Below, piece by piece: positions 8,975 to 28,470 of a stretch of DNA of 51,083 bases. A program made the position numbers and the translations under genes. Position 1 is the stretch's first letter, and each line of letters opens with the position of its first letter. This DNA is from a virus. Lineage: Duplodnaviria; Heunggongvirae; Uroviricota; Caudoviricetes. The stretch lies in the IMG/VR virus record IMGVR_UViG_2541047841_000011; one strand, 5' to 3'. The notes under the pieces are model-generated. The model worked only from the letters and a program-made list of their open reading frames with translations. It ran no database searches and was not told the DNA's origin.

Positions 8975-8978
8975 ACCA

Positions 8979-10953: not shown

Positions 10954-10980
10954 TGCACAAAAGTGCACAAATTTGCACAA
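10954..10980. repeat. Three 10-bp-phased TGCACAA repeats in cos-proximal region
   Basis: cTGCACAAaagTGCACAAattTGCACAAttttttt, plus a fourth GTGCACAAAAAAA at about 11045; candidate terminase/IHF-type binding array. Mirror 40104..40130. Confidence 0.35.
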
Positions 10981-11353
10981 TTTTTTTGAACGACTTTTTA
11001 CCCTTCCGGCCCGCATGGCGGCTGGATCCGTCAAGGATCCGTGCGTGCACAAAAAAACGCGCTTTTTCTGCGCGCAGGTGACGGGGGAACAGCCCGCGTT
11101 TCAGGGGGTAAATAGTATTCCCTGAGCGATGTCGCAGCGACATAACAGAATGGCCATATTTCTCACGCTGAGCGTGAAAAAGATGTGAGGGCTTTTGATT
11201 TGATGGGGTGAAAGGTAAGGCCGTCAAAATCGCACTGAGGCGGTGAGAACATGCAGTCAGCGCGGTGGGATTGCGTAAGAGTCTGACCGTCGATGATGGT
11301 AATAAACAGGAAAGCGTCGTGAAATTATCTGATTGATACAGGAGCTGGAGAGT

Positions 11354-11378
11354 CGGGGCATAAATTTTTTATGCCCCG
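11354..11378. terminator. Perfect 11-bp hairpin downstream of portal gene
   Basis: CGGGGCATAAA-TTT-TTTATGCCCCG, 26 bp beyond the portal stop. Mirror 39706..39730. Confidence 0.5.
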
Positions 11379-11404
11379 CCGAAGCAGCAGACAAGCGAAG
11401 CGCG

Positions 11405-12451
11405 TCAGGATGTGGGCTGGGTGTCTAACAGTGCGTAAGGGTTAAAGCGAATCACCTCTTCGCCAAGCCAGTCATTGATGTGCTTCATGGCCTCCATGAC
11501 GGGCATCAGCTCGTTAATTGCGTAAACCCGCGCGGCCTTCTCCACATCACCAAACGCACTTTTTTCGCCTGGCATCGCCCCCATCAGTTGCGGCGGAACG
11601 CGGTGCGCAGCCAGCACATCATCACGGGATGCCACCTTAACATTCATGAACTCATCCTTTGCGGTGATCTGCTGGAACGGCAAAATTTGCACCCCCTCTT
11701 TGCCACCGTTGGGCGCATGAATGAGCACGTTTTTAAACGCACCACCACCACGCGCACCCTGTAGCGTTTCTTTCAGGGAGTCCATGCTTTCGCGGTTTAC
11801 CTGCGCTGCACCGATGTAGATGATGCACCCGGCGTGGGATCCGTTGTCGTAATACAGTTTTCTGAACATGTCCGCCGAATGAGACAGGCTGGCCGAGAGT
11901 AATGCGCCGAGATATTCCGGCATGCCGTAGATTTCCTGGTTAATGTCAGGATTCATCAGGTGGCACACTTTGCCAGGGCGAAACTGAAACGCGTCCTTGC
12001 CATCCTGCACATACCACCATGATTCAAGATCGCTTCCGCGTCGCATGTATTTCGCCAGGGCGTGCCGTAATTTAAGCGGTTCGCCGAGCATATTGCTTCG
12101 AAGCTCAAGGAATGCGTTACCGAACACAAACCAGTCCAGCGCCAGCGCCGAGAAATCCTGCCGGGAAAGCAACGGGTGCGGGATGTAGCAACCGAGTAAT
12201 ACATTGCGCTTAAAGTAAAGCGCAGACTGATGCCAGGACGTTTGCCGGGCAGCTCTTGCCAGACCGTACCAGTCCACCGGGGTTTCATACCACCGCCCGT
12301 TATCAGCACAGTACATATTGTCCAGCAGGTCATGCCCGGTCAGGCGATAAGGACCATCAAATGTGAATGCACTGAGCGATGATTCTTTCCTGAGCGCATC
12401 AGCGAGATCAATGCGTGAACTCATGCGCACTTTTTTATTTTTTCTGCTCAT
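11405..12451 (-). CDS. Q: Portal protein (P2 gpQ-like)
   Basis: 348 aa; downstream of and translationally overlapped (TGATG) with large terminase on the leftward strand, as in P2 P-Q. Confidence 0.88.
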   Translation of the reverse strand: MSRKNKKVRMSSRIDLADALRKESSLSAFTFDGPYRLTGHDLLDNMYCADNGRWYETPVDWYGLARAARQTSWHQSALYFKRNVLLGCYIPHPLLSRQDFSALALDWFVFGNAFLELRSNMLGEPLKLRHALAKYMRRGSDLESWWYVQDGKDAFQFRPGKVCHLMNPDINQEIYGMPEYLGALLSASLSHSADMFRKLYYDNGSHAGCIIYIGAAQVNRESMDSLKETLQGARGGGAFKNVLIHAPNGGKEGVQILPFQQITAKDEFMNVKVASRDDVLAAHRVPPQLMGAMPGEKSAFGDVEKAARVYAINELMPVMEAMKHINDWLGEEVIRFNPYALLDTQPTS

Positions 12452-14202: not shown

Positions 14203-14356
14203 TGCTCCCCCTGAGTAATTACAGGAAGATTACCCGCGCGCGAAACTGTTCTCCTTAACCCCCTGTTCTGGCCGTTTTCTTACAACAAAAGCCCTTTGTA
14301 TCAGCCTGTTACGCTTTGCCATCATGACTGAAGAACCAGTCAGAGGGGCAAAAACT
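14203..14356. promoter_or_regulatory. Divergent late promoter region (P-Q leftward, O-N-M-L rightward)
   Basis: 154-bp gap between divergent late operons; I could not find a clean TGT-N12-ACA Ogr-type element by eye. Mirror 36728..36881. Confidence 0.4.
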
Positions 14357-15193
14357 ATGGCTAATGAAAAAAAGACATCCCGCAAAAAGTTTCGCGTGGC
14401 TGTCTCCGGTGTAACGGCAGACGGGCGCGAAATCAACGGCGACATGCTGAAAGCTGCCGCCACCAGTTATAACCCGTCCGTTTATGGTGCACGTGTGAAT
14501 ATTGAGCACATCCTGTCACCACTCCCCGGTAGCGAGTTTTCCGCTATGGGCGATGTTGTGGGGTTGAGCACCGAAGACATAACCGATGGCCCGCTGGCAG
14601 GCCGCACGGCACTGTATGCCGAAATTGAGCCGACCGCTCGCATGATGTCCCTGCTTAACGATGGTAAAAAAATTTACTCCAGTATTGAGCTGGAACCACA
14701 GTCAACCATCACGGGAGGCCCTTACCTGCGCGGGCTGGCAATGACCGACACCCCTGCCAGCCTGGGCACGGAACGTCTGGCCTTTGCGGCACAACAACGT
14801 ATGCAACTGATGACATTCAACTGTCAGCAGGGAGACGTGGCGATGTTTACCGCCGCTATGGAGTCAGAACTTATCGAACTCACCGAACAACGTCAGGAAG
14901 AAGGCACCCAGTGGTTTAACCGCGTTATGGGGATTATTGGCCGTGGCCGCAAAGCGGATGACGCCAGTTTCTCCCGTATTCAGGAAGCGGTGGAAGGTGT
15001 CGCAACGTCACAGGCCGACATTATCGACCGTTTTAATGCGCTGGAAACCCGCCATCAGCAGGACAGCCAGAAAATCACTTTACTGACCACAGAGCTGACA
15101 GCACTGAAGGAAAAACTGCGCACGCAGGACGGCGATCCGCAGAACCGGTTCACCGCAACGGGCGCAGCCTCCGATCAACTGGCTGACTTCTGA
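14357..15193 (+). CDS. O: Capsid scaffolding protein (P2 gpO-like)
   Basis: Internal ATG (MANEKK) of ORF 14324..15193 with GAGGGG RBS; conserved YGARVNIEH and GLAMTDTPASLGTE segments as in gpO. Confidence 0.85.
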   Translation: MANEKKTSRKKFRVAVSGVTADGREINGDMLKAAATSYNPSVYGARVNIEHILSPLPGSEFSAMGDVVGLSTEDITDGPLAGRTALYAEIEPTARMMSLLNDGKKIYSSIELEPQSTITGGPYLRGLAMTDTPASLGTERLAFAAQQRMQLMTFNCQQGDVAMFTAAMESELIELTEQRQEEGTQWFNRVMGIIGRGRKADDASFSRIQEAVEGVATSQADIIDRFNALETRHQQDSQKITLLTTELTALKEKLRTQDGDPQNRFTATGAASDQLADF

Positions 15194-15216
15194 TAAGACA
15201 AAGGAGCAAATTTTTT

Positions 15217-16269
15217 ATGAATCTGGTGATGTCAGATATTACCCGCAACAAGCTGGGTTGCTATATGGCGCAGCAGGCGTCGCTTAACAACATCCCGGTA
15301 TCTGCACTGGTATCGCGATTTACCGTGGAACCCTCGGTGCAGCAGCGTTTTGAAAACGCAGTAAAGGAGAGCACTGAATTTACAAAAAAAATTAACGTGT
15401 TCGGTGTGACCGACCAGAAAGGCGAAAAAATCCTCCTGGACACCACCGGGCCGATTGCGCGCACGAATACCAGTTATGACGGCACAAAACGCCGTAACCC
15501 GAATAACGTGGTTGATCTGAAAAACCGTAAATATCAGTGCGAACAGGTGAACTACGACACGTTTATTTCGTATCCGCAGCTTGATGCCTGGGCGGCACAC
15601 CCTGATTTTCAGTCACGCGTCAGCACACAGATTGCCCGGCAGGTGGCGCTTGACCGCATCATGATCGGTTTCAACGGCACGTCTCACGCAGATGAGTCCA
15701 ACTTCAGCACCAACAAGCTGCTTCAGGACGTTAACGTGGGATGGCTGGAGCACATCAGAACCGACGCCAGCGAGCGCGTAATGAATGACGTGACGCTGAC
15801 CTCCCGCAACATGGACAACACCGTGGCGCACGCGGGTAAGTATGCGAACGCTGATGCACTGGTACAGGACGCGCGCTCATCCCTGCTGGATGAATGGCAC
15901 AAGGAAGCTGACGACCTCGTGGTGATTATGGGGCGCAACCTGTTTAACTCGCTGCGTCTGCCCGTGCTGAACAGCATCAGCGGCCAGAATCCCAATGCGG
16001 AATTACTTGCCGGACAGCTCATCCTGTCATCGCGCGCCATTGGCGGACTGGATGTATTCCTTGCGCCGTTCTTCCCGGATTCAACGATGCTGATCACCTC
16101 GTTCAACAACCTGTCGATTTACTGGCAGAAAGGAACAATGCGTCGCCTGATGAAAGACGAGCCGGAATACAACCGCATCGCCACCTACCAGTCCATCAAT
16201 GACGCTTATGTCGTTGAAGACTATGGCAAGTGCGCGATGGTCACTGGCCTGAAGTTCGCCGACAGCTAA
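15217..16269 (+). CDS. N: Major capsid protein (P2 gpN-like)
   Basis: 350 aa; AAGGAG RBS; FTVEPSV..., LSIYWQ and DAYVVEDYG segments similar to gpN. Confidence 0.9.
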   Translation: MNLVMSDITRNKLGCYMAQQASLNNIPVSALVSRFTVEPSVQQRFENAVKESTEFTKKINVFGVTDQKGEKILLDTTGPIARTNTSYDGTKRRNPNNVVDLKNRKYQCEQVNYDTFISYPQLDAWAAHPDFQSRVSTQIARQVALDRIMIGFNGTSHADESNFSTNKLLQDVNVGWLEHIRTDASERVMNDVTLTSRNMDNTVAHAGKYANADALVQDARSSLLDEWHKEADDLVVIMGRNLFNSLRLPVLNSISGQNPNAELLAGQLILSSRAIGGLDVFLAPFFPDSTMLITSFNNLSIYWQKGTMRRLMKDEPEYNRIATYQSINDAYVVEDYGKCAMVTGLKFADS

Positions 16270-16314
16270 TCAACTCACGGCGGGCATCATGCCCGCCTGT
16301 AACGGAGAGAAAAA

Positions 16315-17115
16315 ATGATTACTCCTGCACAGCAACACTGGCAGAACGTGATGGCACAGCGCGCAGGCCGGGCGAATGAAGGCGTGGACCACGCCGCGCG
16401 TACCGCGCATGAAGAGGTGCTGTATCGTCTGCGTCTGGCACAGGCCCGACTTAAGGGCGTACAGGCCAGAAGCGCGAAAGCCGCCATCAAAAAAGAGTTG
16501 TTACCGGACTTTTCCGGCTGGATTGAGGGAACGCTGGAGGCTGACGGCGGGCAGCAAGATGAAGTGATTGCCACGCTGATGGTGTGGGCAATTGACTGCG
16601 GCGATCTTCCGCTGGCGCTGCGTATTGGTGCGTATGTGGTCCGTCACAACCTCATCATGCCGGATAACTTTGACCGTACTGCTGCCACGGTACTGACCGA
16701 AGAAATCTGTAATCCGGTACTGACGCAGGCCGGGACGGATGCCGACGCGGATTTGTCCGCCTTTATCGAACCACTGGACACCCTCCGGGAGATTGTCACC
16801 GACCAGGACATGCCGGACGAAGTGCGCGCCAAATTATGCAAGGCGTGCGCCTTTGCCCGTCGTGGCCTGACCGATGCGGACAGCATGGCCTCATCACTGA
16901 AGCTGCTGCGCGAAGCGATGCACCTGAACCCGAACGCAGGTGTGAAACGCGAGATTGCAACCCTTTCCCGCGCCCTGAAAAAAGCCGATTCCGCAGCCGC
17001 ACCAGAAGATGCCAGCACACCGCAGGCGCAGGACGAAAGCAGCAAAAGTAAAAAGACAACGCGGAAGCCTGCAACACGAAAAACCACCGCGACGCAGAAG
17101 GCGAAGCGCGGTTAA
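16315..17115 (+). CDS. M: Terminase small (endonuclease) subunit (P2 gpM-like)
   Basis: 266 aa with basic low-complexity C-terminal tail; position between capsid and head completion genes. Confidence 0.8.
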   Translation: MITPAQQHWQNVMAQRAGRANEGVDHAARTAHEEVLYRLRLAQARLKGVQARSAKAAIKKELLPDFSGWIEGTLEADGGQQDEVIATLMVWAIDCGDLPLALRIGAYVVRHNLIMPDNFDRTAATVLTEEICNPVLTQAGTDADADLSAFIEPLDTLREIVTDQDMPDEVRAKLCKACAFARRGLTDADSMASSLKLLREAMHLNPNAGVKREIATLSRALKKADSAAAPEDASTPQAQDESSKSKKTTRKPATRKTTATQKAKRG

Positions 17116-17216
17116 CGACTGACCCCGTCAGCGGGCGGCGTGCGCGGTGTTCCGGTTTGACTCCGTGACCGTTTACACCGCACACCCACCGCCCGATTTT
17201 TTCAGGAGTGAACACC

Positions 17217-17711
17217 ATGAGTATGGTTGCCAGAACCAACCCCGGCCCCGCAGAGGACGACATCACCGATACCGATGATGGTGATACCCGTATTTCAGCG
17301 GGCGCATTCTGGCCGGATATTGTGCTGCGTGAGCTGCGTCTGGCGATACGACTGCCGGGCCGTGTGACCACCTCCCGCCTGCTGCATACCGCCACCGGGG
17401 CCGTGGCACACGTTACCCGCGAGCTGGAAGCGTGGCAGCAGGAACAGCAGGCGGCTGGCCATCAGACGCTGGCCGATGTTCCGGCACCCGTAATTAACGG
17501 AGAAAGCGTCAATCTCTGGCACTGGCGCAATGCTGTTTATACCGCCACGCGCGCCCTGATTCTGGAGCGTTATCGTGATGCAGACACAACGGACAAGGGC
17601 GACCGCCGGGCGGACGCTCTGGATATACAGACATCGGATTTGTGGCGTGATGTGAGCTGGGCCATCTCTGACATTCTGTGCCGCCCGCGAATCTTTGCGG
17701 AGTTGTGCTGA
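17217..17711 (+). CDS. L: Head completion/stabilisation protein (P2 gpL-like)
   Basis: ATG at 17217 with AGGAG RBS inside ORF 17208..17711; synteny. Confidence 0.8.
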   Translation: MSMVARTNPGPAEDDITDTDDGDTRISAGAFWPDIVLRELRLAIRLPGRVTTSRLLHTATGAVAHVTRELEAWQQEQQAAGHQTLADVPAPVINGESVNLWHWRNAVYTATRALILERYRDADTTDKGDRRADALDIQTSDLWRDVSWAISDILCRPRIFAELC

Positions 17712-17911
17712 TGAAAGTGAAGGCACTGGAAGGCGACACCGTGGATTCGCTCTGTTTCCGGCACTACGGCACGACGCAGGGCGTCACCGAAAAGGTGCTG
17801 GATGCCAACCCCGGACTCTGTCAGCAGGTATTTCTGGACGCCGGGCAGGAAGTGGAGATGCCGGAGCCGGAGAAGAAGAAACGAGAAATGATTCAGTTGT
17901 GGGGGGAGTAG
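17711..17911 (+). CDS. X: Tail protein X (P2 gpX-like)
   Basis: 66 aa MKVKALEGDTVDSLCFRHYG...; TGATG overlap with L. Confidence 0.75.
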   Translation: MKVKALEGDTVDSLCFRHYGTTQGVTEKVLDANPGLCQQVFLDAGQEVEMPEPEKKKREMIQLWGE

Positions 17912-17913
17912 CA

Positions 17914-18237
17914 GTGAGCACCATTCAAACAGGGATCACAGAGCAGGTTATTGCATGGCTCTTTGACCACCTGCCAACGGTGTATGCAGTAGGCGCGGCG
18001 GTCAGCATTTCCGCGCTGATGAGTCTTTATGACGGACGAACACTGGTTCAGACCGTAACGGGATCGCTGGCGTGCGGCGTTCTTGCCATGGCTGTGGCCG
18101 GGTCGTTGCGCTTCTTCGGTTTTCCTGAAGATGCCGTGACGTTTATCGGCGCATCAATCGGTTTTATGGGGGCAGAGAAAGCACGCGATAAGGTTATTGC
18201 GGCCTTTAATCGCAGGGTGAAGGAGAAGGACGAATGA
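17914..18237 (+). CDS. Holin (three predicted TM helices)
   Basis: GTG start after gpX stop; hydrophobic segments LPTVYAVGAAVSISALMSLY, GSLACGVLAMAVAGSLRFFGF, AVTFIGASIGFMGA; basic C-terminus; precedes endolysin. Confidence 0.6.
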   Translation: MSTIQTGITEQVIAWLFDHLPTVYAVGAAVSISALMSLYDGRTLVQTVTGSLACGVLAMAVAGSLRFFGFPEDAVTFIGASIGFMGAEKARDKVIAAFNRRVKEKDE

Positions 18238-18626
18238 GCAACACATTTAAATTCAGCAGCCGGAGCGAAAAGAATTTGCAGGGCGTAAATCCTGATCTGG
18301 TGAAAGTGACCCGACGGGCACTGGAAATTTCGGAAGTGGATTTTGGTATCACCGAAGGGTTGCGCAGTCGTTACCGCCAGAAGCAACTTGTGGCCACAGG
18401 TAAGAGCCAGACCATGAACAGCCGCCACCTTACGGGACATGCCGTGGATGTTGTGGCTTATATCGGCAGCCAAGTGTCATGGGAATGGCCGCTGTACGAA
18501 AAAATCGCAGCCGCATTCAAACAGGCCAGCCGGGAACTGAATATTCCGGTGGAATGGGGCGGCGACTGGAAGACCCTGAAAGACGGACCGCATTTTCAGT
18601 TACCACACGGAGCCTATCCGGCATGA
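18234..18626 (+). CDS. Endolysin, peptidase M15-type (L-Ala-D-Glu / D-Ala-D-Ala peptidase fold)
   Basis: 130 aa; Zn-binding signature SRHLTGHAVDV and DGPHFQ; ATGA overlap with holin. Confidence 0.8.
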   Translation: MSNTFKFSSRSEKNLQGVNPDLVKVTRRALEISEVDFGITEGLRSRYRQKQLVATGKSQTMNSRHLTGHAVDVVAYIGSQVSWEWPLYEKIAAAFKQASRELNIPVEWGGDWKTLKDGPHFQLPHGAYPA

Positions 18627-19030
18627 AGCTCTGGCCAACGCTTGGCGTTGCTTTCCTTCTGATTGCCGGATGGGGAACATCCATGCGTCTGTCATGGTCG
18701 CTGGGCCGGGAGAACGCCAGAAACGAAGCGCAGGCCAGCACCCTGAAACGTACCGCCGACACCCTGAATATCATCAGCGCCGGGGTACAGGATATGCAGC
18801 AGGTGCTGGCGCAACTCCGCGTGGAAAATCAGCAACGCAATCAGGACGGAGAGGCAAGACGTGAACAGCTACGCAACGATATTGCAAAAGATGAATGCGC
18901 CCACGCTTTGCCTGACGCTCGTTTTACTGACAGGCTGCGCAGGCACGCAGAACGCGCTACGGCCAGCGCCGTCAGTCCGGCTTATACCGCAGACGCTGAC
19001 CATACCGGTAACGCCTCCCCCCTTCCCTGA
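18623..19030 (+). CDS. i-spanin (Rz/LysB-like)
   Basis: Internal ATG of ORF 18479..19030; N-terminal TM (MKLWPTLGVAFLLIAGWG) then coiled-coil-like periplasmic domain. Confidence 0.6.
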   Translation: MKLWPTLGVAFLLIAGWGTSMRLSWSLGRENARNEAQASTLKRTADTLNIISAGVQDMQQVLAQLRVENQQRNQDGEARREQLRNDIAKDECAHALPDARFTDRLRRHAERATASAVSPAYTADADHTGNASPLP

Positions 19031-19181
19031 CACTCCCACATGGGGAAATCTCGGTATATGGGGCGACCGCCTTCTGGATGCACTGGAAACCTGTAACGCG
19101 GATAAACGGGCCATTGAATTACTGGAACAGCGCAGGCTGCAACGACTGAACAACGAGGACAACAACCATGCTGAAAACTGA
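18891..19181 (+). CDS. o-spanin lipoprotein (Rz1/LysC-like), overlapped out of frame with i-spanin
   Basis: Lipobox LLTGC then proline-rich segment; starts inside the i-spanin gene and extends past it, as in P2 lysB/lysC. Confidence 0.55.
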   Translation: MNAPTLCLTLVLLTGCAGTQNALRPAPSVRLIPQTLTIPVTPPPFPDTPTWGNLGIWGDRLLDALETCNADKRAIELLEQRRLQRLNNEDNNHAEN

Positions 19182-19635
19182 TTCCCTGCGTGAAGCCATG
19201 ACCCGTTCATGCCGATGGTGTCAGGCCAACCCGGAAAAATTCACCATTTTCGTGGAGAGCGGCAACATTGAAACGACCGGAGAAACGCCCTCGTTTGTTT
19301 ACCGCTATCAGATGGTGATGTTTGTCATGGATTACGCCGGGGAGCTGGACGACCTCACGCTGCCGCTACTGGCGTGGTTATCCGAAAATCAGCCACAGTT
19401 GTTGCTCAATCCGGAGCGTAATCAGGACATCAAATTCTCCGCCGTTATCAATGACGATGACAGCGCCGATCTCCTGTTTACGCTCCCCCTGCGGGAACGC
19501 GTTCGCATTACGCGCAGCAGTCAGGGGACACCGCAGGCAGAGCACCTGCCGGAGCCAAAACCCCGTCTGCCATCTTCCGAAGGCGACTGGTCGCATATAT
19601 TCCAGGATGTGACGTGGGGTGAAAGCGATGGATAA
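19168..19635 (+). CDS. R: Tail completion protein (P2 gpR-like)
   Basis: 155 aa, N-terminus MLKTDSLREA; synteny. Confidence 0.8.
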   Translation: MLKTDSLREAMTRSCRWCQANPEKFTIFVESGNIETTGETPSFVYRYQMVMFVMDYAGELDDLTLPLLAWLSENQPQLLLNPERNQDIKFSAVINDDDSADLLFTLPLRERVRITRSSQGTPQAEHLPEPKPRLPSSEGDWSHIFQDVTWGESDG

Positions 19636-20263
19636 GGCATTCACCCGTGTGGATGAAACCTTTGAGGCCATCCGCGACAGCCTGAATCAGCAGGCCATCA
19701 ATAACATCGCCAGAAAGCTGGCACAGGATTTACGCCGCGCCCAGCAGGCGCGCATCCGGTCACAGAAAGCGCCGGACGGGACCGCATGGACACCACGCAG
19801 ACGCCGCGTAACCCGGATACAGGAGCGCATTCGCTTTATCTGGAATAACGAAGCACGCACGCTGAAAAACTGGCATCACGACACGGGGAAATACGGGCGA
19901 ACCATTACCGGGTGGGATGAGGATAAAAACAATATCCGCACGTTTTACCGGGATGACATCGACCGTTTTCTGGAAATACGCACCCGGCGCATCAACCAGG
20001 ACAGCACAAAGCGCGTCCCCATGTTCGTAAAACTGCGCACCGCCCGCTACCTGAAAGCCCGTGCAGATGCTTCCGGTGTGACGGTGGGTTACAGCGGCGT
20101 GGCCGCACGTATTGCACGCGTTCATCAGTTCGGTGAGCGCGATCAGGTTGCGCCGGGCATTTTCACCGATTACCCGGTACGTGAGCTGCTGGGTATCAGC
20201 CAGGCAGATGAGCGCCTGATTTATAACACGGTGCTGGGCCGGATTGCGGAGGCTGTACGGTGA
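19628..20263 (+). CDS. S: Tail completion / virion morphogenesis protein (P2 gpS-like)
   Basis: ATG at 19628 inside ORF 19619..20263; synteny. Confidence 0.78.
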   Translation: MDKAFTRVDETFEAIRDSLNQQAINNIARKLAQDLRRAQQARIRSQKAPDGTAWTPRRRRVTRIQERIRFIWNNEARTLKNWHHDTGKYGRTITGWDEDKNNIRTFYRDDIDRFLEIRTRRINQDSTKRVPMFVKLRTARYLKARADASGVTVGYSGVAARIARVHQFGERDQVAPGIFTDYPVRELLGISQADERLIYNTVLGRIAEAVR

Positions 20264-20841
20264 GCGCAGAACTCATGCGACTGCTGAGCAACATCATCCG
20301 TACCGGGATCATCTCTGAAGTTGATGAGGAATCCTGGTGCGTGCGCGTTCGCAGCGGCGAACTGGAAACAGGCTGGCTGCGCTGGAACACCACGCGCGCG
20401 GGAGCCTTCAATGTATGGCTGCCGCCATCACCAGGCGAACAGGTGGTAATTGCCTGCATTGGCGGCAACCCGGAAACCGCCATGATAATTGGCAGCCTGT
20501 GGAGTGATGCCAGTCCGGCCCCCGGCAAAAGCCTGAAAGAAATCGTGGTCAGCGCGCCGGATGGCGCGGTGTTCCGCTACGACGCGGAAGCAGGCGCACT
20601 GAGCGCCAGCGGCATGAAAACAGCCACCCTGCAGGCATCCGTCAGCGTGACACTGGACACGCCCGTCGTGGAATGCACAGACCTTCTGAGAACGGCGACG
20701 CTTGACGTCACAAAAGGAGGAAAGATGAGCGGCAATATCACGCACAGCGGCGGCAACTTCACCTCAAACGGCATTACCGTGCATACGCATAAACACGGTG
20801 GCGTGAAAGGCGGCAGCGATTCGACAGGAGGCCCGCAGTGA
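20260..20841 (+). CDS. V: Baseplate spike/hub protein (P2 gpV-like)
   Basis: 193 aa; C-terminal GNITHSGGNFTSNGITVHTHKHGG as in gpV; GTG start overlaps S stop. Confidence 0.9.
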   Translation: MSAELMRLLSNIIRTGIISEVDEESWCVRVRSGELETGWLRWNTTRAGAFNVWLPPSPGEQVVIACIGGNPETAMIIGSLWSDASPAPGKSLKEIVVSAPDGAVFRYDAEAGALSASGMKTATLQASVSVTLDTPVVECTDLLRTATLDVTKGGKMSGNITHSGGNFTSNGITVHTHKHGGVKGGSDSTGGPQ

Positions 20842-21188
20842 CAACCCGCTACACAGGAATGAATCCGGACGGGACGGGAAACCTGAACGATATGGAGCAC
20901 CTGAAACAGTCAGTCAGGGATATCCTGACCACCCCGCTGGCAAGCCGGGTTATGCGACGGGAATATGGCAGCCTTGTGCCTGATTTGATTGACGAACCCA
21001 TGAATAACACCACGCGTCTGCAATGCATGAGTGCTGCCGTGATTGCGCTGACACGATGGGAACCCCGCATTGCCCTGGATGCCATCGACGTTGTCTGGAA
21101 AGCGGGAGGCCGCGCCGGGGTGACGCTGTCGGGCACTGTCATGCAGACCATGCAGAATGTTGAATTAACCATCACGCTGAGGGAGTAA
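20838..21188 (+). CDS. W: Baseplate wedge protein (P2 gpW-like)
   Basis: 116 aa, MTTRYTGMN...RVMRREYGS as in gpW. Confidence 0.85.
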   Translation: MTTRYTGMNPDGTGNLNDMEHLKQSVRDILTTPLASRVMRREYGSLVPDLIDEPMNNTTRLQCMSAAVIALTRWEPRIALDAIDVVWKAGGRAGVTLSGTVMQTMQNVELTITLRE

Positions 21189-21191
21189 ATC

Positions 21192-22088
21192 ATGCCTGCC
21201 GTTGACCTTTCCCAGTTACCGGAACCCGCCATCATCGCGGAGCCTGACTTTGAGGCAATTCTGGCTGACACAAAGGCCATGATGATTGCGGCTTATCACG
21301 CCGAACAGCGTGAAGCCGTTTCCGCCGCGCTGGAGCTGGAATCGGAACCCCTGAACGTTATCGCCCAGACAACAGCGTTTCGTGAAATGCTGTTACGCCA
21401 GCGGGTCAATGAGGGGGCACGCGCCTGCATGTTAAGCCACAGCGCCGGGACAGACCTGGACAACCTCGCGGGCAATATGAACACAAAGCGCCTGACCATC
21501 ACTCCGGCAACGGATACCACCGACGCAGTGATGGAAAGTGACACCTCGCTGAGACTGCGGGCGCAGCGGGCGTACGATGGCCTGAGTGTTGCTGGCCCGT
21601 CAGGTGCATACGAGTATTTTGCCCGCAGCGCCAGCGGTCTGGTGCGTGATGCGCGGGCTATCAGTCCGTCTCCGGCAAATGTGACGGTTTCCATTCTGTC
21701 CACTGAAGGCGACGGCACAGCAACGGAGGCGTTGCTTAATACCGTTCGCGCCGTTCTGAATGCAGAGGACACCCGCCCGGTGGCCGACCGCCTGACCGTA
21801 CAGAGCGCCAGAATCGTGACATGGCGGCTGAATGCAAAACTGTACTTTTACCCCGGTCCGGAATCCGAACCTATTCTGGCTGCGGCGGAATCGTCGTTCA
21901 GGAAGTGGCTGGCTGAGCAGGGGCTTATCGGTCAGGACGTGGCGTTGTCCGCCATTGCTGCCGCACTGCATGTGCACGGTGTGCAACGCGTGGAGATAAT
22001 CGAACCCACACAGAATATGGCCATCAGCGACATACAGGCGGCGCGCTGTGAGTCATTCACCATCAGCGAAGGTGGGCGCAATGAGTAA
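21192..22088 (+). CDS. J: Baseplate assembly protein (P2 gpJ-like)
   Basis: 298 aa; GGGAG RBS; synteny. Confidence 0.88.
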   Translation: MPAVDLSQLPEPAIIAEPDFEAILADTKAMMIAAYHAEQREAVSAALELESEPLNVIAQTTAFREMLLRQRVNEGARACMLSHSAGTDLDNLAGNMNTKRLTITPATDTTDAVMESDTSLRLRAQRAYDGLSVAGPSGAYEYFARSASGLVRDARAISPSPANVTVSILSTEGDGTATEALLNTVRAVLNAEDTRPVADRLTVQSARIVTWRLNAKLYFYPGPESEPILAAAESSFRKWLAEQGLIGQDVALSAIAAALHVHGVQRVEIIEPTQNMAISDIQAARCESFTISEGGRNE

Positions 22089-22611
22089 TTCGTTGTTACC
22101 ACCATCAGCCAGCAATTTCATGCGTTGTGCCGAAGCCGTCGGAACACGCATTACAGACATTCCGGTAGACCTCAACACACTGTGGTCGCCGGATACCTGC
22201 CCGGTGCATCTGCTGCCCTATCTCGCCTGGGCATTTTCCGTTGACCGCTGGGATCGCAACTGGCCGGAAGAGACAAAGCGACAGGTTATTCGTGATGCAT
22301 GGCTGATACACCGACACAAAGGGACCATCAGCGCACTGCGCAGGGCCATTGAGCCGCTGGGATACCTCATTCGCGTGTCTGAGTGGTGGGAGTTCGGCGG
22401 AGAACCGGGAACATTTACCGTTGAAGTCGGCACACTGGACAGTGGCGTGACGGAGGAAATGTATCTGGAAATGGAGCGGTTGATTGCTGATGCCCGCCCG
22501 GTCAGCCGCCACATGACAGGGCTGAATATCATTCAGGAAATTCCGGGGGATATTTTCGCAGCGGCGGCAACTTATGACGGTGAAGTTATTACCATTTATC
22601 CGGACGATTAA
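22081..22611 (+). CDS. I: Baseplate protein (P2 gpI-like)
   Basis: ATG at 22081 inside ORF 22048..22611 gives 176 aa; overlaps J stop. Confidence 0.83.
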   Translation: MSNSLLPPSASNFMRCAEAVGTRITDIPVDLNTLWSPDTCPVHLLPYLAWAFSVDRWDRNWPEETKRQVIRDAWLIHRHKGTISALRRAIEPLGYLIRVSEWWEFGGEPGTFTVEVGTLDSGVTEEMYLEMERLIADARPVSRHMTGLNIIQEIPGDIFAAAATYDGEVITIYPDD

Positions 22612-22613
22612 GC

Positions 22614-24848
22614 ATGAGTACCACAACACGAAAATTTAAAACCGTTATCACCGATACAGGTGCAAAAAAATTAGCTCAGGCAGCCGCGCCAGATGGTAAG
22701 CCTGTCCGCCTGACTCATATGGCCGTGGGCGACGGTGGCGGCACGTTGCCCACACCAGACAGTAAGCAGACCCGTCTGGTGCATGAGGTGTGGCGACACA
22801 CTGTTAATCGCGTCATCCTGGACGCAACACATCAGAACCGCATTATTGCGGAGCTGGTTATACCTCCTGAAACGGGCGGATTCTGGATCCGGGAAATTGG
22901 TGTATTTGATGAGCACGGCGATTTAATCGCGGTGGGCAATACTGCCGAAAGTTACAAGCCAACCGTTGCCGAGGGGTCCGGACGTGCACAAACATTTCGC
23001 ACCATTCTGACCGTATCCAGCACTGCCAGCGTGGCGCTTACCGTGGATAACACCATGGTGATGGCCACAGTGGATTACGTGGATGACAAACTGAAAGAGC
23101 ATGAACAGTCACGACGTCACCCGGATGCCTCGCTGACCGCAAAAGGCTTTGTTCAACTCAGTAGCGCCACTAACAGCGATTCTGAAACGCTGGCCGCAAC
23201 GCCGAAAGCGGTTAAGGCCGCGTATGACCTGGCTAACGGAAAATATACCGCTCAGGACGCCACGACGGCACGAAAAGGGATAGTCCAGCTCAGCAGTGCA
23301 ACCAACAGCACGTCTGAAACGCAGGCTGCAACGCCGAAAGCAGTAAAGGCGGCATATGACCTTGCTAACGCAAAATATACCGCTCAGGACGCAACGACGG
23401 CACGAAAAGGGATAGTTCAGCTCAGTAGCGCCACTAACAGCCCGTCTGAAACGCTGGCTGCGACACCAAAAGCGGTTAAGGCGGTAATGGATGAAACGAA
23501 CAAGAAAGCGCCTTTAAACAGTCCTGCGCTGACCGGAACGCCAACAACGCCAACTGCGCGACAGGGAACGAATAATACCCAAATCGCAAGCACGGCTTTC
23601 GTTATGGCTGCGATTGCCGCCCTTGTAGATTCGTCACCTGACGCACTGAATACGCTGAACAAGTTAGCGGCGGCGCTGGGAAACGACCCGAATTTTGCGA
23701 CCACCATGACTAACGCGCTTGCGGGTAAGCAACCGAAAGATGCCACCCTGACGGCGCTGGCCGGGCTTGCTACTGCGGCAGACAGGTTTCCGTATTTTAC
23801 GGGGAATGATGTCGCCAGCCTGGCAACCCTGACAAAAGTCGGGCGGGATATTCTTGCGAAATCGACCGTTGCTGCCGTTATCGAATACCTCGGTTTACAG
23901 GAAACGGTAAATCAGGCTTCTGGCGCATTACAGAAAAACCAGAACGGCGCAGATATTCCGGGTAAAGATACCTTCACCAAAAACATTGGTGCCTGCCGCG
24001 CATATAGCGCATGGCTGAATATTGGTGGCGATAGTCAGGTCTGGACAACTGCGCAATTTATTTCGTGGCTGGAGAGTCAGGGGGCATTTAACCATCCTTA
24101 CTGGATGTGCAAAGGCTCATGGGCTTATGCAAATAATAAGGTCATTACAGATACAGGTTGCGGAAATATTTGTCTTGCAGGTGCTGTGGTGGAAGTTATT
24201 GGCACTCGCGGCGCAATGACCATACGCGTTACTACGCCGAGTACGTCCAGCGGCGGCGGAATTACTAACGCTCAATTCACCTATATTAATCATGGTGATG
24301 CTTATGCTCCTGGCTGGCGACGAGACTACAACACGAAAAACCAGCAGCCTGCATTTGCTTTAGGGCAAACAGGACGCAGGGTCGCAAATGATAAAGCTGT
24401 TGGCTGGAACTGGAATAGCGGTGTTTATGATGCAGATATCAGTGGTGCATCGACATTAATCCTCCACTTCAATATGAATGCGGGGAGTTGCCCTGCTGTA
24501 CAGTTCCGCGTGAATTACAGGAACGGCGGTATCTTTTATCGTTCAGCGCGTGATGGTTATGGCTTTGAAGCTAACTGGTCAGAGTTTTACACCACAACCC
24601 GCAAACCCTCTGCGGGGGATGTTGGTGCATATACGCAGGCAGAATGTAATTCAAGGTTTATTACAGGTATTCGCTTGGGCGGTCTGTCATCTGTTCAGAC
24701 ATGGAATGGTCCCGGCTGGTCTGACAGGTCAGGTTATGTCGTTACGGGTTCAGTTAACGGAAACCGTGATGAATTAATTGATACAACTCAGGCAAGGCCA
24801 GTTCAGTATTGCATTAATGGGACGTGGTATAACGCGGGGAGTATTTAA
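22614..24848 (+). CDS. H: Tail fibre protein H, variant 1 (constant N-terminus plus variable C-terminus Hv1)
   Basis: 744 aa; N-terminal part with 44-aa SSATNS...ATPKAVK repeats identical to the 842-aa mirror ORF up to ...[10 protein letters not shown]; C-terminus diverges after the 26-bp crossover site at 23878..23903. Confidence 0.9.
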   Translation: MSTTTRKFKTVITDTGAKKLAQAAAPDGKPVRLTHMAVGDGGGTLPTPDSKQTRLVHEVWRHTVNRVILDATHQNRIIAELVIPPETGGFWIREIGVFDEHGDLIAVGNTAESYKPTVAEGSGRAQTFRTILTVSSTASVALTVDNTMVMATVDYVDDKLKEHEQSRRHPDASLTAKGFVQLSSATNSDSETLAATPKAVKAAYDLANGKYTAQDATTARKGIVQLSSATNSTSETQAATPKAVKAAYDLANAKYTAQDATTARKGIVQLSSATNSPSETLAATPKAVKAVMDETNKKAPLNSPALTGTPTTPTARQGTNNTQIASTAFVMAAIAALVDSSPDALNTLNKLAAALGNDPNFATTMTNALAGKQPKDATLTALAGLATAADRFPYFTGNDVASLATLTKVGRDILAKSTVAAVIEYLGLQETVNQASGALQKNQNGADIPGKDTFTKNIGACRAYSAWLNIGGDSQVWTTAQFISWLESQGAFNHPYWMCKGSWAYANNKVITDTGCGNICLAGAVVEVIGTRGAMTIRVTTPSTSSGGGITNAQFTYINHGDAYAPGWRRDYNTKNQQPAFALGQTGRRVANDKAVGWNWNSGVYDADISGASTLILHFNMNAGSCPAVQFRVNYRNGGIFYRSARDGYGFEANWSEFYTTTRKPSAGDVGAYTQAECNSRFITGIRLGGLSSVQTWNGPGWSDRSGYVVTGSVNGNRDELIDTTQARPVQYCINGTWYNAGSI
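23141..23490 (+). repeat. 132-bp tandem repeat (2.6 units) inside tail fibre gene
   Basis: Units start at 23141, 23273, 23405; encode 44-aa fibre repeat [44 protein letters not shown]. Mirror 27594..27943. Confidence 0.85.
23878..23903. other. Left crossover site for a Gin/Hin/Cin/Pin-family serine invertase (gix-like)
   Basis: TTATCGAATACC-TC-GGTTTACAGGAA, a 12-2-12 imperfect palindrome matching the Din-family site as I recall it (Mu gix about TTATCCAAAACC-TC-GGTTTACAGGAA), at the constant/variable junction of the fibre gene. Confidence 0.75.
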
Positions 24849-24850
24849 CG

Positions 24851-25384
24851 ATGATGCACTTAAAAAACATTACTGCTGGCAACCCTAAAACAAAAGAGCA
24901 ATACCAGCTAACGAAACAATTTAACATCAAATGGCTTTATTCAGAGGATGGAAAAAACTGGTATGAGGAACAAAAGAATTTCCAGCCAGACACTTTGAAA
25001 ATGGTCTATGACCATAACGGCGTTATTATTTGTATTGAAAAGGATGTTTCAGCAATTAATCCGGAAGGCGCAAGCGTCGTTGAATTACCTGATATTACAG
25101 CAAATCGCCGTGCTGACATTTCGGGTAAATGGATGTTCAAAGATGGCGTAGTGGTAAAGCGAACTTATACCGAGGAAGAGCAGAGGCAGCAGGCGGAAAA
25201 TGAAAAGCAAAGCCTGCTACAGCTCGTCAGGGATAAAACCCAGCTATGGGACTCACAGCTACGGCTGGGCATCATTTCCGACGAGAATAAACAAAAATTA
25301 ACAGAGTGGATGCTCTTTGCGCAGAAAGTCGAATCTACAGACACTTCCAGCCTGCCAGTAACGTTTCCCGAACAACCAGAATGA
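24851..25384 (+). CDS. G: Tail fibre assembly protein, variant 1 (P2 gpG / Mu U-like)
   Basis: 177 aa, MMHLKNITAGNPKT...[14 protein letters not shown]; immediately follows Hv1. Confidence 0.85.
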   Translation: MMHLKNITAGNPKTKEQYQLTKQFNIKWLYSEDGKNWYEEQKNFQPDTLKMVYDHNGVIICIEKDVSAINPEGASVVELPDITANRRADISGKWMFKDGVVVKRTYTEEEQRQQAENEKQSLLQLVRDKTQLWDSQLRLGIISDENKQKLTEWMLFAQKVESTDTSSLPVTFPEQPE

Positions 25385-25387
25385 GAG

Positions 25388-25414
25388 AAGGCCTGATATC
25401 GGGCCTTAATTTTT
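25388..25414. terminator. Bidirectional hairpin between convergent tail-fibre assembly genes
   Basis: AAGGCC-TGATATC-GGGCCTT followed by AATTTTT; lies in the 28-bp gap between stops at 25384 and 25413. Confidence 0.5.
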
Positions 25415-25940
25415 ACTCAGGCTTTTGTGGCCATTCGGGCTTTGCCGTATCCACACGGCTGACCATAACACTGTAGCGTTCCCATGACTCCAGTCGTGCG
25501 CATTCCTCATCCGTCGCCATATTCAGCCTGACAGCGCGTTCCAGTGGCTGAATAACGCTTTCCGCTTCGGAAAGTAACGCGGCCTTTTGTGATTCTGCCT
25601 GTTGTTGCTGTTCATCTGCCGTATAAATCCGTTTAACCACAGCACCATCCTTAAACATCCATTTACCTGAGTCGTCAGCACGTCGGTTGGAGGTAATATC
25701 AGGAACCTCAACAACGCTAAAACCTTCAGGATTAAGCGTTGAAGCATCTCTGGTGATAGCGACAATAATATTATTTTCATCGTAAACAATCTTTATTGTG
25801 TCTGACTGAAAGTTCTTCACTTCCTCATACCAGTTTTTCCCGTCTTCAGTGTAAAGCCAGATGACTCCATGCTTCTTTGTTAACTCATACTGTTCCAGTG
25901 TTTTAGCGTTACCCGCTTTTATGTTCTTTAAGTGCATCAT
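25413..25940 (-). CDS. Tail fibre assembly protein, variant 2 (Mu U-prime-like)
   Basis: 175 aa, [14 protein letters not shown]...[14 protein letters not shown]; homologous to but distinct from variant 1. Confidence 0.85.
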
Positions 25941-25941
25941 A

Positions 25942-28470
25942 TTAAACGCTCGCTACATTATACCATGTGCCATTTATATACTTTTGAACGGGTCTGTAAT
26001 AAACACCCGCAATATTATCGGCGGAGTTGGAACCTGTATCCTGAACATTTATACCAGACAATACATGACCTGAAGGGCACTGGAAGTTCCATGTTTGCCA
26101 GTTGTTCACACCATAATATTGCTGTGAGCCAAGCCGAACATCTTTCACATATCTGGAATCAATGTTACCCCAGTTGCTTGGTTGTATCTGACCGTTTACA
26201 GCAAATGTCACCGAGTTATCTGTATTTCGCTGACTATAGAAATGCCAGCCTGAATCATCACCAAGCTCTGCAACAGTTGGTCTTGACGAATTTCCCCACA
26301 AGTTAAATGATGCATTACGGGCAGCGGTATTTGCACTTGAAAGTGTGAATAACTTACTTTCCCCAGCCTGAATACCCTTTAATGATATTGCTGAGCCATT
26401 TCTAAAGCGGAATACATGCACACCATTAGCATAAGCATCCAGCACCCCATCACCATTTTGTTTAAACCCAGTATCGTTATCTCCTAAAACTATTGAATTT
26501 CCCCCCAGGGCATTAGCCGTTCCAATCCCCAGATTTCCGCTAAAAATGGCATTAATACCGAATATTGAGTGAGAACAATAAAACCCTCGCCCATTGTTAA
26601 AATCCAGAATGGCTTGTGCGTTCGTGCTTTCTGTCGCGGGATTAGTTGCTCCCCACTTATATGTTGTTTGACCGACGGTATAATCCTGAGTTGGAACAAT
26701 AACCGTTAGCCCTTCTTCGGCAAAAACTCGCACAGGAAAAGCCCTGCCTTCAACGTAAAAAACGCTGCATACATCATCTTCTTTAAGGCTTGTTACAATG
26801 GAATGGATTGCGCGCTCATTAGTCTGATACGTCGAAAAATAACCTGCCGCATATGAACCACGATCAGTCCAGCCACCAGGCATTACCATTCCATTGAATT
26901 CGCAGTTATTCATTGCGTAATCACCACTGGCAGATGTGGTCGTTATAATCACTCTGGAAGCCAGCTCGCCAGTGCTGCCTGTGGAACGCCGGAAAATAAC
27001 TGGATACCACTTTCCACCAACTGCATTAGACGGCGCATTAAATGCGTACTGCCGCATTCCTTTTTTCTTATCCACCTCGCCTTTGCTGTAAACATTAATG
27101 TTACTCAGGAAGCGATCCTTATCAGGAATATCCGCGCCGTTCTGTTTTTTTTGTAATGCGCCAGAAGCCAGATTTACCGTTTCCTGCAAACCGAGGTATT
27201 CGATAACGGCAGCAACGGTCGATTTCGCAAGAATATCCCGCCCGACTTTTGTCAGGGTTGCCAGGCTGGCGACATCATTCCCCGTAAAATACGGAAACCT
27301 GTCTGCCGCAGTAGCAAGCCCGGCCAGCGCCGTCAGGGTGGCATCTTTCGGTTGCTTACCCGCAAGCGCGTTAGTCATGGTGGTCGCAAAATTCGGGTCG
27401 TTTCCCAGCGCCGCCGCTAACTTGTTCAGCGTATTCAGTGCGTCAGGTGACGAATCTACAAGGGCGGCAATCGCAGCCATAACGAAAGCCGTGCTTGCGA
27501 TTTGGGTATTATTCGTTCCCTGTCGCGCAGTTGGCGTTGTTGGCGTTCCGGTCAGCGCAGGACTGTTTAAAGGCGCTTTCTTGTTCGTTTCATCCATTAC
27601 CGCCTTAACCGCTTTTGGTGTCGCAGCCAGCGTTTCAGACGGGCTGTTAGTGGCGCTACTGAGCTGAACTATCCCTTTTCGTGCCGTCGTTGCGTCCTGA
27701 GCGGTATATTTTGCGTTAGCAAGGTCATATGCCGCCTTTACTGCTTTCGGCGTTGCAGCCTGCGTTTCAGACGTGCTGTTGGTTGCACTGCTGAGCTGGA
27801 CTATCCCTTTTCGTGCCGTCGTGGCGTCCTGAGCGGTATATTTTCCGTTAGCCAGGTCATACGCGGCCTTAACCGCTTTCGGCGTTGCGGCCAGCGTTTC
27901 AGAATCGCTGTTAGTGGCGCTACTGAGTTGAACAAAGCCTTTTGCGGTCAGCGAGGCATCCGGGTGACGTCGTGACTGTTCATGCTCTTTCAGTTTGTCA
28001 TCCACGTAATCCACTGTGGCCATCACCATGGTGTTATCCACGGTAAGCGCCACGCTGGCAGTGCTGGATACGGTCAGAATGGTGCGAAATGTTTGTGCAC
28101 GTCCGGACCCCTCGGCAACGGTTGGCTTGTAACTTTCGGCAGTATTGCCCACCGCGATTAAATCGCCGTGCTCATCAAATACACCAATTTCCCGGATCCA
28201 GAATCCGCCCGTTTCAGGAGGTATAACCAGCTCCGCAATAATGCGGTTCTGATGTGTTGCGTCCAGGATGACGCGATTAACAGTGTGTCGCCACACCTCA
28301 TGCACCAGACGGGTCTGCTTACTGTCTGGTGTGGGCAACGTGCCGCCACCGTCGCCCACGGCCATATGAGTCAGGCGGACAGGCTTACCATCTGGCGCGG
28401 CTGCCTGAGCTAATTTTTTTGCACCTGTATCGGTGATAACGGTTTTAAATTTTCGTGTTGTGGTACTCAT
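25942..28470 (-). CDS. Tail fibre protein H, variant 2 (constant N-terminus plus variable C-terminus Hv2, P2 H-like tip)
   Basis: 842 aa; first roughly 430 aa identical to variant 1; C-terminus ends ...[13 protein letters not shown]...RYVKDVRLG...[13 protein letters not shown], which resembles my recollection of the P2 gpH end. Confidence 0.9.
27181..27206. other. Right crossover site for a Din-family serine invertase (gix-like)
   Basis: TTCCTGCAAACC-GA-GGTATTCGATAA, reverse complement of the left site except one base (27187). Confidence 0.75.

Follow-up and report, generated by a model that had tools for sequence, protein, structure and literature searches.

The 3.3-kb core of the window, the whole 51,083-nucleotide stretch of DNA analysed here, very probably derives from a P88-like (Xuanwuvirus, P2-family) E. 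coli prophage, in which it forms the invertible tail-fibre segment, and was captured in a window that is most likely misassembled. The system itself is already known: it is an ordinary invertible tail-fibre switch of an E. coli P2-family prophage, and only the folding back of the contig at the switch gives it an unusual look. An earlier note had placed two alternative fibre tips with cognate chaperones at 23897-27187, and two intact, convergent cassettes, with two Caudo_TAP open reading frames, indeed lie there. The features are as follows.

1..23896, no strand: palindrome left arm, a P88-like prophage between the stop codon of its integrase gene and the constant part of its fibre gene
22614-24848, + strand: fibre ORF 1 (constant part and Hv1), 744 aa, ending ...QYCINGTWYNAGSI
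22614..23890, + strand: constant 5' part of the tail-fibre gene, P2 gpH-type, aa 1-425/426 (ORF, Pfam, P2 H identity)
23878..23903, + strand: crossover site 1, 26 bp, TTATCGAATACC-TC-GGTTTACAGGAA, gix/cix type, central dinucleotide 23890-23891, in codon 426
23891..24848, + strand: variable tip Hv1 (about 318 aa), orthologue of the Mu S' variable part, the G(-) fibre tip (tblastn, PDB)
24851..25384, + strand: chaperone 1 for tail-fibre assembly, 177 aa, orthologous to Mu U', paired with Hv1 (Pfam)
25388..25407, no strand: G+C-rich hairpin, 8-bp stem with 5 G-C pairs, within the 28 nt that separate the convergent chaperone genes
25413..25940, - strand: chaperone 2 for tail-fibre assembly, 175 aa, of the Mu U / P2 G type, paired with Hv2 (Pfam)
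25942..27193, - strand: variable tip Hv2 (about 416 aa), mosaic (phage-isolate matches, P2 H, PDB)
25942-28470, - strand: fibre ORF 2 (constant part and Hv2), 842 aa
27181..27206, - strand: crossover site 2, 26 bp, TTATCGAATACC-TC-GGTTTGCAGGAA, inverted relative to site 1
27188-51083: palindrome right arm, exact reverse complement of the left arm
27194..28470, - strand: second, mirror-image constant 5' part, in a palindrome arm and read as artefactual

When the window was compared with itself, positions 1-23896 and the reverse complement of 27188-51083 proved to be one and the same sequence, without a single mismatch in 23,896 nt, and the symmetry centre of this palindrome coincides with the centre of the 51-kb window. 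Positions 23897 and 27187 are the exact first and last at which the window ceases to be its own reverse complement, and the arms end within 6 nt of the crossover-site centre. The left arm, which is 95-97% identical to P88-like phages, begins at window position 1 with the integrase stop codon. The layout is, accordingly, X-S-X', where X is the left arm, S the segment and X' the reverse complement of X, in contrast to X-S-Y in the native prophage; genes for the sheath, tube, tape measure, gpU and gpD are absent from the window, and a tblastn search of its 51 kb detected no invertase gene. The earlier note did not mention the palindrome, and it missed both the lack of an invertase in the window and the identity of the two "constant shaft" copies as palindrome arms; findings elsewhere in the window come as mirror-image pairs.

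Because the window is a perfect palindrome, each tip in it is already fused to its own full constant part. The two fibre ORFs are 99% identical across aa 1-458, beyond which a C-terminal stretch of 76 columns (37% identity, E 8e-9) is all that they have in common, in keeping with the previous claim that the tips share only the junction and the C-terminus. With the crossover centre in codon 426, 318 (Hv1) and 416 (Hv2) residues are variable, close to the lengths of about 315 and 410 aa given before. Neither fibre ORF contains a frameshift or an internal stop, both fusions being open to their stop codons, so that the decay named in the earlier note as a possible refutation is absent; annotated proteins in complete E. 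coli genomes match the 744-aa fusion at 744/744 positions and the 842-aa fusion at 841/842. These exact fibre proteins are already in RefSeq. The constant part combines an N-terminal Phage_tail_fib domain (PF12571, E 1e-53) with three Phage_fiber_2 repeats (PF03406, E 3e-61), is 74% identical to P2 H residues 4-394, and follows the baseplate genes J and I in the gene order V-W-J-I-H; by both Pfam domains and by gene position, it belongs to a long tail fibre of the P2 gpH type.

The crossover sites are located exactly where the two fibre genes diverge. They match each other at 25/26 positions, differ from Mu gix (TTATCCAAAACCTCGGTTTACAGGAA) at 2-3 of 26 positions, and are the only matches in the 51 kb (0 expected, from 100 shuffles); the annotated G-segment boundaries in the Mu record fall at the gix centre, and site 1 is identical to the 5' crossover site of EC958 Phi4 (PMC4134206, Table 3). 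The outer half of site 2 in the window is of the fibre-gene type, as opposed to the invertase-side type TTATCTAAAACC in real genomes. When genomes of opposite orientation were compared, the half-sites were found to be exchanged, the outer ones remaining with the flanks and the inner ones travelling with the segment; the exchange maps to positions 11-19 of the 26-mer, as expected for a crossover at its centre.

Complete E. coli genomes carry the same segment at 96-99.9% nucleotide identity, adjoining just one constant 5' portion of the fibre gene. Among the best 17 chromosomal matches, Hv2 is fused to the constant part in 9 and Hv1 in 8, so the claim that inversion joins either tip to the same shaft is borne out: both orientations occur beside one constant part. 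In particular, the O145 isolates RM9872 and RM9467-C1 are 100% and 99.98% identical in the flanks of a 3337-nt block that is inverted between them. In NR1430 and AH21F008 (99.9% nucleotide identity) there is a single constant arm, and the far side of the segment harbors a 199-aa recombinase followed by gpU, tape measure, gpE, tube and sheath. In every native relative examined, this recombinase is a Resolvase+HTH_7 protein whose gene lies 55 bp away from the site; it shows 81% identity to Mu Gin and matches PDB 4M6F/3UJ3 with E about 1e-99 (4M6F, E 8e-100). The first 180 nt of the AH21F008 invertase gene are 97% identical to Mu gin, compared to 51-78% further downstream, and this conserved 5' end is consistent with a conserved cis element such as a Fis-dependent enhancer, which would lie outside the window. 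The segment thus shows the features of the Gin/Cin/Pin/Hin type: two inverted, consensus-matching 26-bp sites, both orientations in otherwise identical genomes, a constant part outside and, inside, opposed in-frame 3' parts with their chaperones; the adjacent invertase is lacking in the window but present in every native relative examined. The whole two-tip segment is also found, at about 88% nucleotide identity, on P1-like plasmids of 92-110 kb.

Of the two tips, Hv1 has the more straightforward affinities. It is 96.5% identical to Mu S' over 316/316 aa, 97.5% to P7 Sv, 87% to P1 Sv' and 97.2% to the silent tip of P88 (all by tblastn), and matches PDB 8JU3 (E 2e-214); judged by this full-length, high-identity match, it is a receptor-binding tip of the Mu S' (G(-)) kind. 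The S' protein of SfMu is 96% identical to that of Mu, yet the host range of SfMu differs (PMC4406740), and the host range of Hv1 therefore cannot be read from Mu. The Hv2 tip is a mosaic. Its proximal half is of the lambdoid and 9g-like side tail fibre type (residues 1-230, 58-73% identical), residues 211-414 show 63-65% identity to those of WPhi H and relatives, and the distal 204 aa are 63% identical to P2 H 473-669; identity to Mu S 417-503 is 47%, and PDB 5YVQ_A is matched with E 9e-16. The alignment to Mu S/S', P1 and P2 H proposed in the earlier note thus identifies Hv1 with Mu S' and the C-terminal part of Hv2 with P2 H, and its label "P2 H-like" was right for the last 204 aa of Hv2 and for chaperone 2. 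The best full-length match of Hv2 among phage isolates is just 58% (phage 9W, Peduovirus P22H4): Hv2 is common in E. coli, without a characterised close relative among isolated phages, and its receptor is a modest question of interest to host-range engineering.

Both chaperones are Caudo_TAP tail-fibre assembly proteins by their PF02413 scores (125 and 126 bits, cut-off 22.1) and by their position behind a fibre gene, each start codon lying 2-3 nt past the fibre stop codon. Chaperone 1 (E 3e-36) is 97% identical to Mu U'; chaperone 2 (E 1e-36) is 90% identical to Mu U and 89% to P2 G, and matches chain B of PDB 5YVQ (E 7e-102). As noted before, they are of 177 and 175 aa and have diverged, with 56% identity overall, although the first 120 aa are 70% identical and it is the C-terminal thirds that differ. 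The hairpin between them is followed by a T-run on the + strand, which is suggestive of a terminator, in a region where the count of terminator-like matches is not above chance; the same holds for promoter matches.

In the native prophage, one promoter-proximal constant part ends at a 26-bp crossover site, beyond which the segment comprises Hv1 and its U'-type chaperone, convergent with Hv2 and its U/G-type chaperone, and closes at an inverted copy of the site, with a Gin-family serine invertase gene beginning 55 bp further on. Helped by host Fis and by an enhancer at the 5' end of its own gene, the invertase would cut at the central TC of both sites and rotate the strands, and inversion would bring either Hv1 or Hv2, together with the cognate chaperone, into place as the in-frame continuation of the constant part. 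A lysogen population would then yield virions with two adsorption specificities. The comparisons show the anatomy, the sites, the orthology to Mu S'/U'/U and P2 G, the invertase next to the segment in near-identical genomes, and the natural occurrence of both orientations; the dependence on Fis and the enhancer, as well as which receptors are bound, we infer. The earlier reading of the locus as a host-range switch holds for the switch, in view of both orientations and of the near-isogenic inversion, and the effect on host range would follow by analogy with Mu, in which the G(+) and G(-) orientations have different host ranges (PMC4406740).

The palindromic window itself is probably a fold-back misassembly through the invertible segment. 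An assembler could have crossed the segment and then come back by way of the other real junction, producing X-S-X', and the invertase would be missing because the window is a fold-back contig and not the element itself. The longest exact run common to the native inverted repeats is 18 nt; with so little shared sequence, the DNA that was sequenced must have contained the X-Hv1 junction as well as the X-Hv2 junction, and hence both orientations were present in the sample. The misassembly thus probably indicates that switching was active in the source. Three draft contigs (L032, L039 and L040) terminate at this same crossover site. Inversion of fibre segments in E. coli P2-like prophages has been shown from reads and PCR, with about 50:50 mixtures of orientations in single cultures and a warning on artefactual duplications at such segments (PMC4134206, PMC4272514).

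Conceivably, the palindrome could be a real head-to-head X-S-X' molecule formed in vivo, the invertase having joined the fibre-side site of one copy to the site next to the invertase gene in another copy of direct orientation, so that the intervening DNA was inverted or two genomes were fused. Such an exchange, right site of one copy by left site of the other, gives exactly X-S-X' on paper, and the arms do end within a few nucleotides of the crossover-site centre, as site-specific exchange between copies would dictate. However, a constant part on both sides of the segment was found in 0 of 5,426 complete E. coli genomes, and the invertase occupies the far side at all inspected loci that encode exactly the 842-aa or the 744-aa protein. 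Moreover, an element lacking sheath, tube, tape measure, gpU and gpD could not make tails, the perfect identity of the arms and the mirror-image ends suit a graph walk, and enzymes of the Gin/Hin family have a strong preference for inverted sites that lie in cis within a single supercoiled molecule. A genuine palindrome is, then, highly improbable; were it real, it would be a 51-kb head-to-head prophage that has lost its tail-tube module, the second copy being a sister chromosome, a second prophage or a replicating phage genome, and it would mean that an enzyme family regarded as confined to sites in cis had, unusually, acted in trans.

It is also very unlikely that switching was inactive in the source and that the assembler merged a pair of strains or prophage copies that each had a fixed orientation. 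Each orientation does occur as a fixed state in different finished genomes, and locked variants exist, such as L031 with an IS4 insertion in the invertase gene, but arms identical at all 23,896 positions are not to be expected of independent strains, when even 99.9% relatives differ; in addition, near-isogenic isolates differ in orientation, and mixtures within single cultures are documented (PMC4134206, PMC4272514). That two separate full-length fibre genes are expressed together, without inversion, in a dual-fibre virion is scarcely credible. Both ORFs in the window are full-length, begin at a start codon of their own and have a chaperone each, but this explanation needs the 23.9-kb inverted duplication to be real, and it is at odds with crossover sites placed precisely at the divergence point of the two genes and with the one constant part and the invertase in all natural relatives. 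With an invertible segment in a misassembled contig as the preferred reading, the window length, the gene content and the "two fibre genes" of this chimeric contig should not be read as those of a real genome. The biological gain is small, given that Gin/Cin-type fibre switching is textbook knowledge and has been demonstrated experimentally in E. coli P2-like prophages.

The same layout is found in the Mu G segment with Gin (S/U versus S'/U'), in which the constant part, a 26-bp site, tip and chaperone, inverted chaperone and tip, second site and invertase follow in the same order, and the DNA is 92% identical over 2.1 kb. The differences are that the host phage here is of the P2 family, that the constant part is a 426-aa P2 gpH-type sequence as opposed to the about 170 aa of Mu Sc, that only the last ~90 aa of Hv2 resemble Mu Sv (47% identical), and that the segment measures 3.3 kb compared to 3.0 kb. 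The C segment of P1/P7 with Cin has the Hv1 counterparts (P7 Sv, P1 Sv') and both chaperones in common with the present one but differs in replicon and constant part. The inverted repeats of P1 are also described in the literature as much longer (0.6 kb), whereas similarity between those described here is limited to about 130 nt. The invertible fibre segments of EC958 Phi1/Phi4, EPEC E2348/69 and phage P88 belong to the same prophage family. P88 has the same constant part (96%, aa 1-441), S'/U' cassette (97-98%) and invertase (98% identical), but its other cassette is swapped, the expressed tip being Hv2-like only over the last 96 aa (42%). In this family, inversion was shown from PacBio reads and PCR (PMC4134206, PMC4272514). 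The EC958 Phi4 segment is 3106 bp and its invertase is truncated. By contrast, P2 H/G is fixed and non-invertible, without crossover sites, second cassette or invertase and with fun(Z) after G, and the likeness to it extends to the constant part, the distal 204 aa of Hv2 and chaperone 2. Finally, the e14 P segment with Pin and the p15B Min shufflon share the invertase family and the 26-bp site consensus (Sandmeier, as quoted in PMC4134206), but p15B Min is a multi-site shufflon, whereas the segment described here, with two sites only, is a simple two-state switch.

The window contains two long convergent fibre ORFs, with two small convergent ORFs between them; Hv1 and Hv2 denote the two alternative tail-fibre tips, that is, the variable 3' parts of the fibre genes. 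The features are, in order:

22614-24848, + strand: fibre ORF with Hv1, 744 aa, its 3' portion inside 23897-27187
23878-23903, + strand: left crossover site, the 26-mer TTATCGAATACCTCGGTTTACAGGAA, at the divergence point of the two fibre genes
24851-25384, + strand: chaperone 1 (cognate to Hv1), 177 aa, Caudo_TAP E about 1e-36
25388-25407: hairpin between the convergent chaperone genes, parting the two cassettes
25413-25940, - strand: chaperone 2 (cognate to Hv2), 175 aa, Caudo_TAP E about 1e-36
25942-28470, - strand: fibre ORF with Hv2, 842 aa, its 3' portion inside 23897-27187
27181-27206, - strand: right crossover site, the inverted partner of the left site, from which it differs by one base

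Over residues 1-458 the two fibre proteins are 99% identical; past residue 458, the only similarity left is weak and C-terminal, at 37% across 76 columns (E 8e-9). In Pfam, each shows three Phage_fiber_2 repeats in addition to an N-terminal Phage_tail_fib domain. The variable residues after codon 426 number 318 in Hv1 and 416 in Hv2. The tip lengths and end sequences that the earlier note had given proved correct, and its claim that there is no decay holds: both tips have open reading frames and find identical counterparts among the expressed-form ORFs of other genomes, which rules out that one of them is a decayed pseudogene. Each tip is indeed accompanied by its own diverged chaperone; identity between the two is 56% overall and 70% in the first 120 residues, the C-terminal thirds having diverged. 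The observation of two tips, each with its own chaperone, is confirmed. Promoter and terminator scans of the segment yielded nothing above the shuffled expectation, and the one terminator-scan feature of note, the hairpin between the chaperone genes, can be considered suggestive.

The two 26-mers are the sole matches within the window, where none is expected by chance, and a search of the window for extra crossover sites, the sign of a shufflon, with up to 3-5 mismatches detected none. The central TC dinucleotide (23890-23891) lies inside codon 426. In Mu, TTATCCAAAACCTCGGTTTACAGGAA is present at both ends of the G segment, the annotated boundaries of which are the centre of that 26-mer. The left site in the window is letter-identical to the 5' crossover site of the EC958 prophage Phi4, the inversion of which is directly visible in PacBio reads (PMC4134206).

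The segment inverts in nature. A Megablast search of 5,426 complete E. coli genomes recovered it at 96-99.9% identity, in all cases beside only one constant arm, the genome matches ending at window position 23874 or 27210, no more than 5 bases outside a site. Inversion had been predicted to fuse either tip to the same constant shaft, and both fusions are seen: among the best 17 chromosomal matches, Hv2 is fused in 9 and Hv1 in 8. In the complete genome NR1430 it is Hv2 that is fused, Hv1 being a promoterless fragment; in AH21F008 the roles are reversed, with Hv1 fused and Hv2 left as the fragment. In a near-isogenic pair of O145 isolates, the flanks are 100% and 99.98% identical and a 3337-nt block is inverted. 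When genomes with opposite orientations are compared, the outer half-sites remain with the flanks and the inner half-sites move with the segment, which maps the exchange of strands to positions 11-19 of the 26-mer, a stretch that includes the central dinucleotide. Segments of this kind in P2-like prophages have been found as mixed populations inside single E. coli cultures, by read-level and PCR data (PMC4134206, PMC4272514). Three large draft E. coli contigs that carry the segment (L032, L039 and L040), 454-460 kb long, terminate on the far crossover site or no more than about 20 nt from it, L039 at the exact point where the fibre-side and invertase-side half-sites diverge; these ends suggest mixed orientations in those cultures.

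On the far side of the segment, NR1430 and AH21F008 have a gene for a recombinase of 199 aa at a distance of 55 bp from the site, and beyond it, on the opposite strand, those for gpU, tape measure, gpE, tube and sheath. The recombinase shares 81% identity with Mu Gin and 98% with the P88 invertase; its matches to the crystal structures of Gin reach E about 1e-99. In its gene, the first 180 nt (7562-7741 of L002, the AH21F008 locus) are 97% identical to Mu gin (L004), compared with 51-78% downstream and about 51% in the 3' third. The recombinational enhancer is situated in the 5' end of gin, and the 97% identity would fit a conserved enhancer; the steep gradient along the gene suggests either such a conserved cis element or recent recombination of the 5' end. 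In one sequence (L031, GCA_964043755.1, positions 15035-16684), an IS4-family transposase lies within the invertase gene, of which about 100 aa are left; presumably, this is a natural variant locked with Hv2 expressed.

The window is palindromic: its positions 1-23896 and 27188-51083 are reverse complements of each other with 0 mismatches, its centre is the centre of symmetry, and 23897-27187 is exactly the non-palindromic core. The constant shaft is therefore present twice, each copy complete and already joined to one of the tips. The window begins, at position 1, with the stop codon of the integrase gene of the prophage, which means that it is cut at mirror-image gene boundaries. No invertase was detected in the window by tblastn, and the genes for gpU, tape measure, gpE, tube and sheath are absent from it. 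The perfect identity of the arms, the mirror-image ends, the breakpoints at crossover sites, the absence of essential tail genes and the lack of any such structure in the 5,426 finished E. coli genomes all point to a fold-back misassembly, a kind of error about which the EC958 authors explicitly warned (PMC4134206) and which accounts for the missing invertase. A genuine head-to-head recombinant, that is, a real palindrome, is highly improbable. Hundreds of public assemblies encode exactly the 842-aa and 744-aa proteins, with the invertase on the far side in each context read and the palindromic arrangement in none. The exact 50-nt junction between the left arm and Hv2 had 0 matches in IMG/VR and 0 in GTDB representative genomes, and in the metagenome collection was found in one contig, of normal architecture.

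With both orientations in the population, reads would join X, the left arm with the constant 5' part of the fibre gene, to Hv1 as well as to Hv2, and in a bidirected assembly graph the path X-S-X' (S, the invertible segment; X', the reverse complement of X) would then be as legal as X-S-Y, where Y is the native invertase-side flank. The longest exact run common to the native inverted repeats is 18 bases, so a short-read assembler would need genuine X-Hv2 reads to pass from Hv2 into X'; for short-read graph assemblers, we therefore reject a jump via the inverted repeat without real junction reads. The draft assemblies L032, L039 and L040 simply break at this point instead. As the main cause, a random fold-back chimera, such as an amplification artefact or a missed hairpin adapter would produce, was rejected: what lies between the arms is a 3.3-kb segment that is not palindromic, and both arm ends coincide with the crossover sites. 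The useful new information on the window, namely, its apparent status as a chimeric palindromic contig, is negative.

All genes outside 23897-27187 are doubled as mirror images, and any finding in one arm recurs in the other. A segregation protein of the actin-like ParM type (8015-8974, + strand, and mirror copy; StbA_N E 1e-81, ParM C-terminal domain E 1e-69) is encoded in the arms of this integrative P2-family prophage, its gene lying between the portal gene and replication gene A (5116-7938). The accessory hotspot between the same two genes also holds a two-gene cassette (9377-10756, - strand, and mirror copy) encoding a 280-aa protein with no Pfam match and a weak PADLOC match to Csx27 (E 1e-5), and a 165-aa DUF4760 protein; this cassette is possibly defence cargo.

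Gin-family serine invertases bind two inverted 26-bp sites, are activated by enhancer-bound Fis and make staggered cuts at the central dinucleotide, followed by 180-degree rotation of one half of the synapse (PMC3575834). Such cleavage and rotation would invert the 3.3-kb segment, and expression would be limited to the cassette that follows the constant part with its upstream late promoter, the chaperone being co-transcribed with its tip; the virions would then carry either the S'-type or the Hv2-type tip. By analogy with Mu, the reaction probably depends on Fis and the enhancer. The earlier note read the segment as a host-range switch; this reading is supported by the natural inversion, and, to judge from Mu, inversion would change the host range (PMC4406740). 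Mu is no safe guide to the receptor of Hv1: the S' of SfMu is 96% identical, and yet SfMu behaves differently from Mu (PMC4406740).

Hv1 is the variable part of Mu S' (96.5% amino acid identity to Mu, 97.5% to P7 Sv and 87% to P1 Sv'; PDB 8JU3 at E 2e-214), and chaperone 1 is Mu U' (97%). Chaperone 2 is 90% identical to Mu U and 89% to P2 G, and matches PDB 5YVQ_B at E 7e-102. Mu, D108, SfMu, P7 and P88 match 2.1 kb of the segment with 92-93% nucleotide identity. The best full-length match of Hv2 among isolated phages is only 58% (phage 9W, Peduovirus P22H4), and its likeness to Mu S is limited to about 90 C-terminal residues (47%). The label P2 H-like from the earlier note fits chaperone 2 and the last 204 aa of Hv2, which have 63% identity to P2 H and WPhi H; in its proximal half, Hv2 is similar to side fibres of the lambdoid and 9g types. 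Several E. coli plasmids of P1-like size (92-110 kb; matches H131-H139) carry the segment with both tips, one of them Hv2-like, and both chaperones, at about 88% nucleotide identity, which implies that the cassette pair moves between P2-family prophages and these plasmids. Phage P88 shares the S'/U' cassette, the constant part and the invertase with this prophage and has the other tip exchanged, a case of the familiar mosaicism of fibre genes. The system is of a known kind, with alleles already in the databases.
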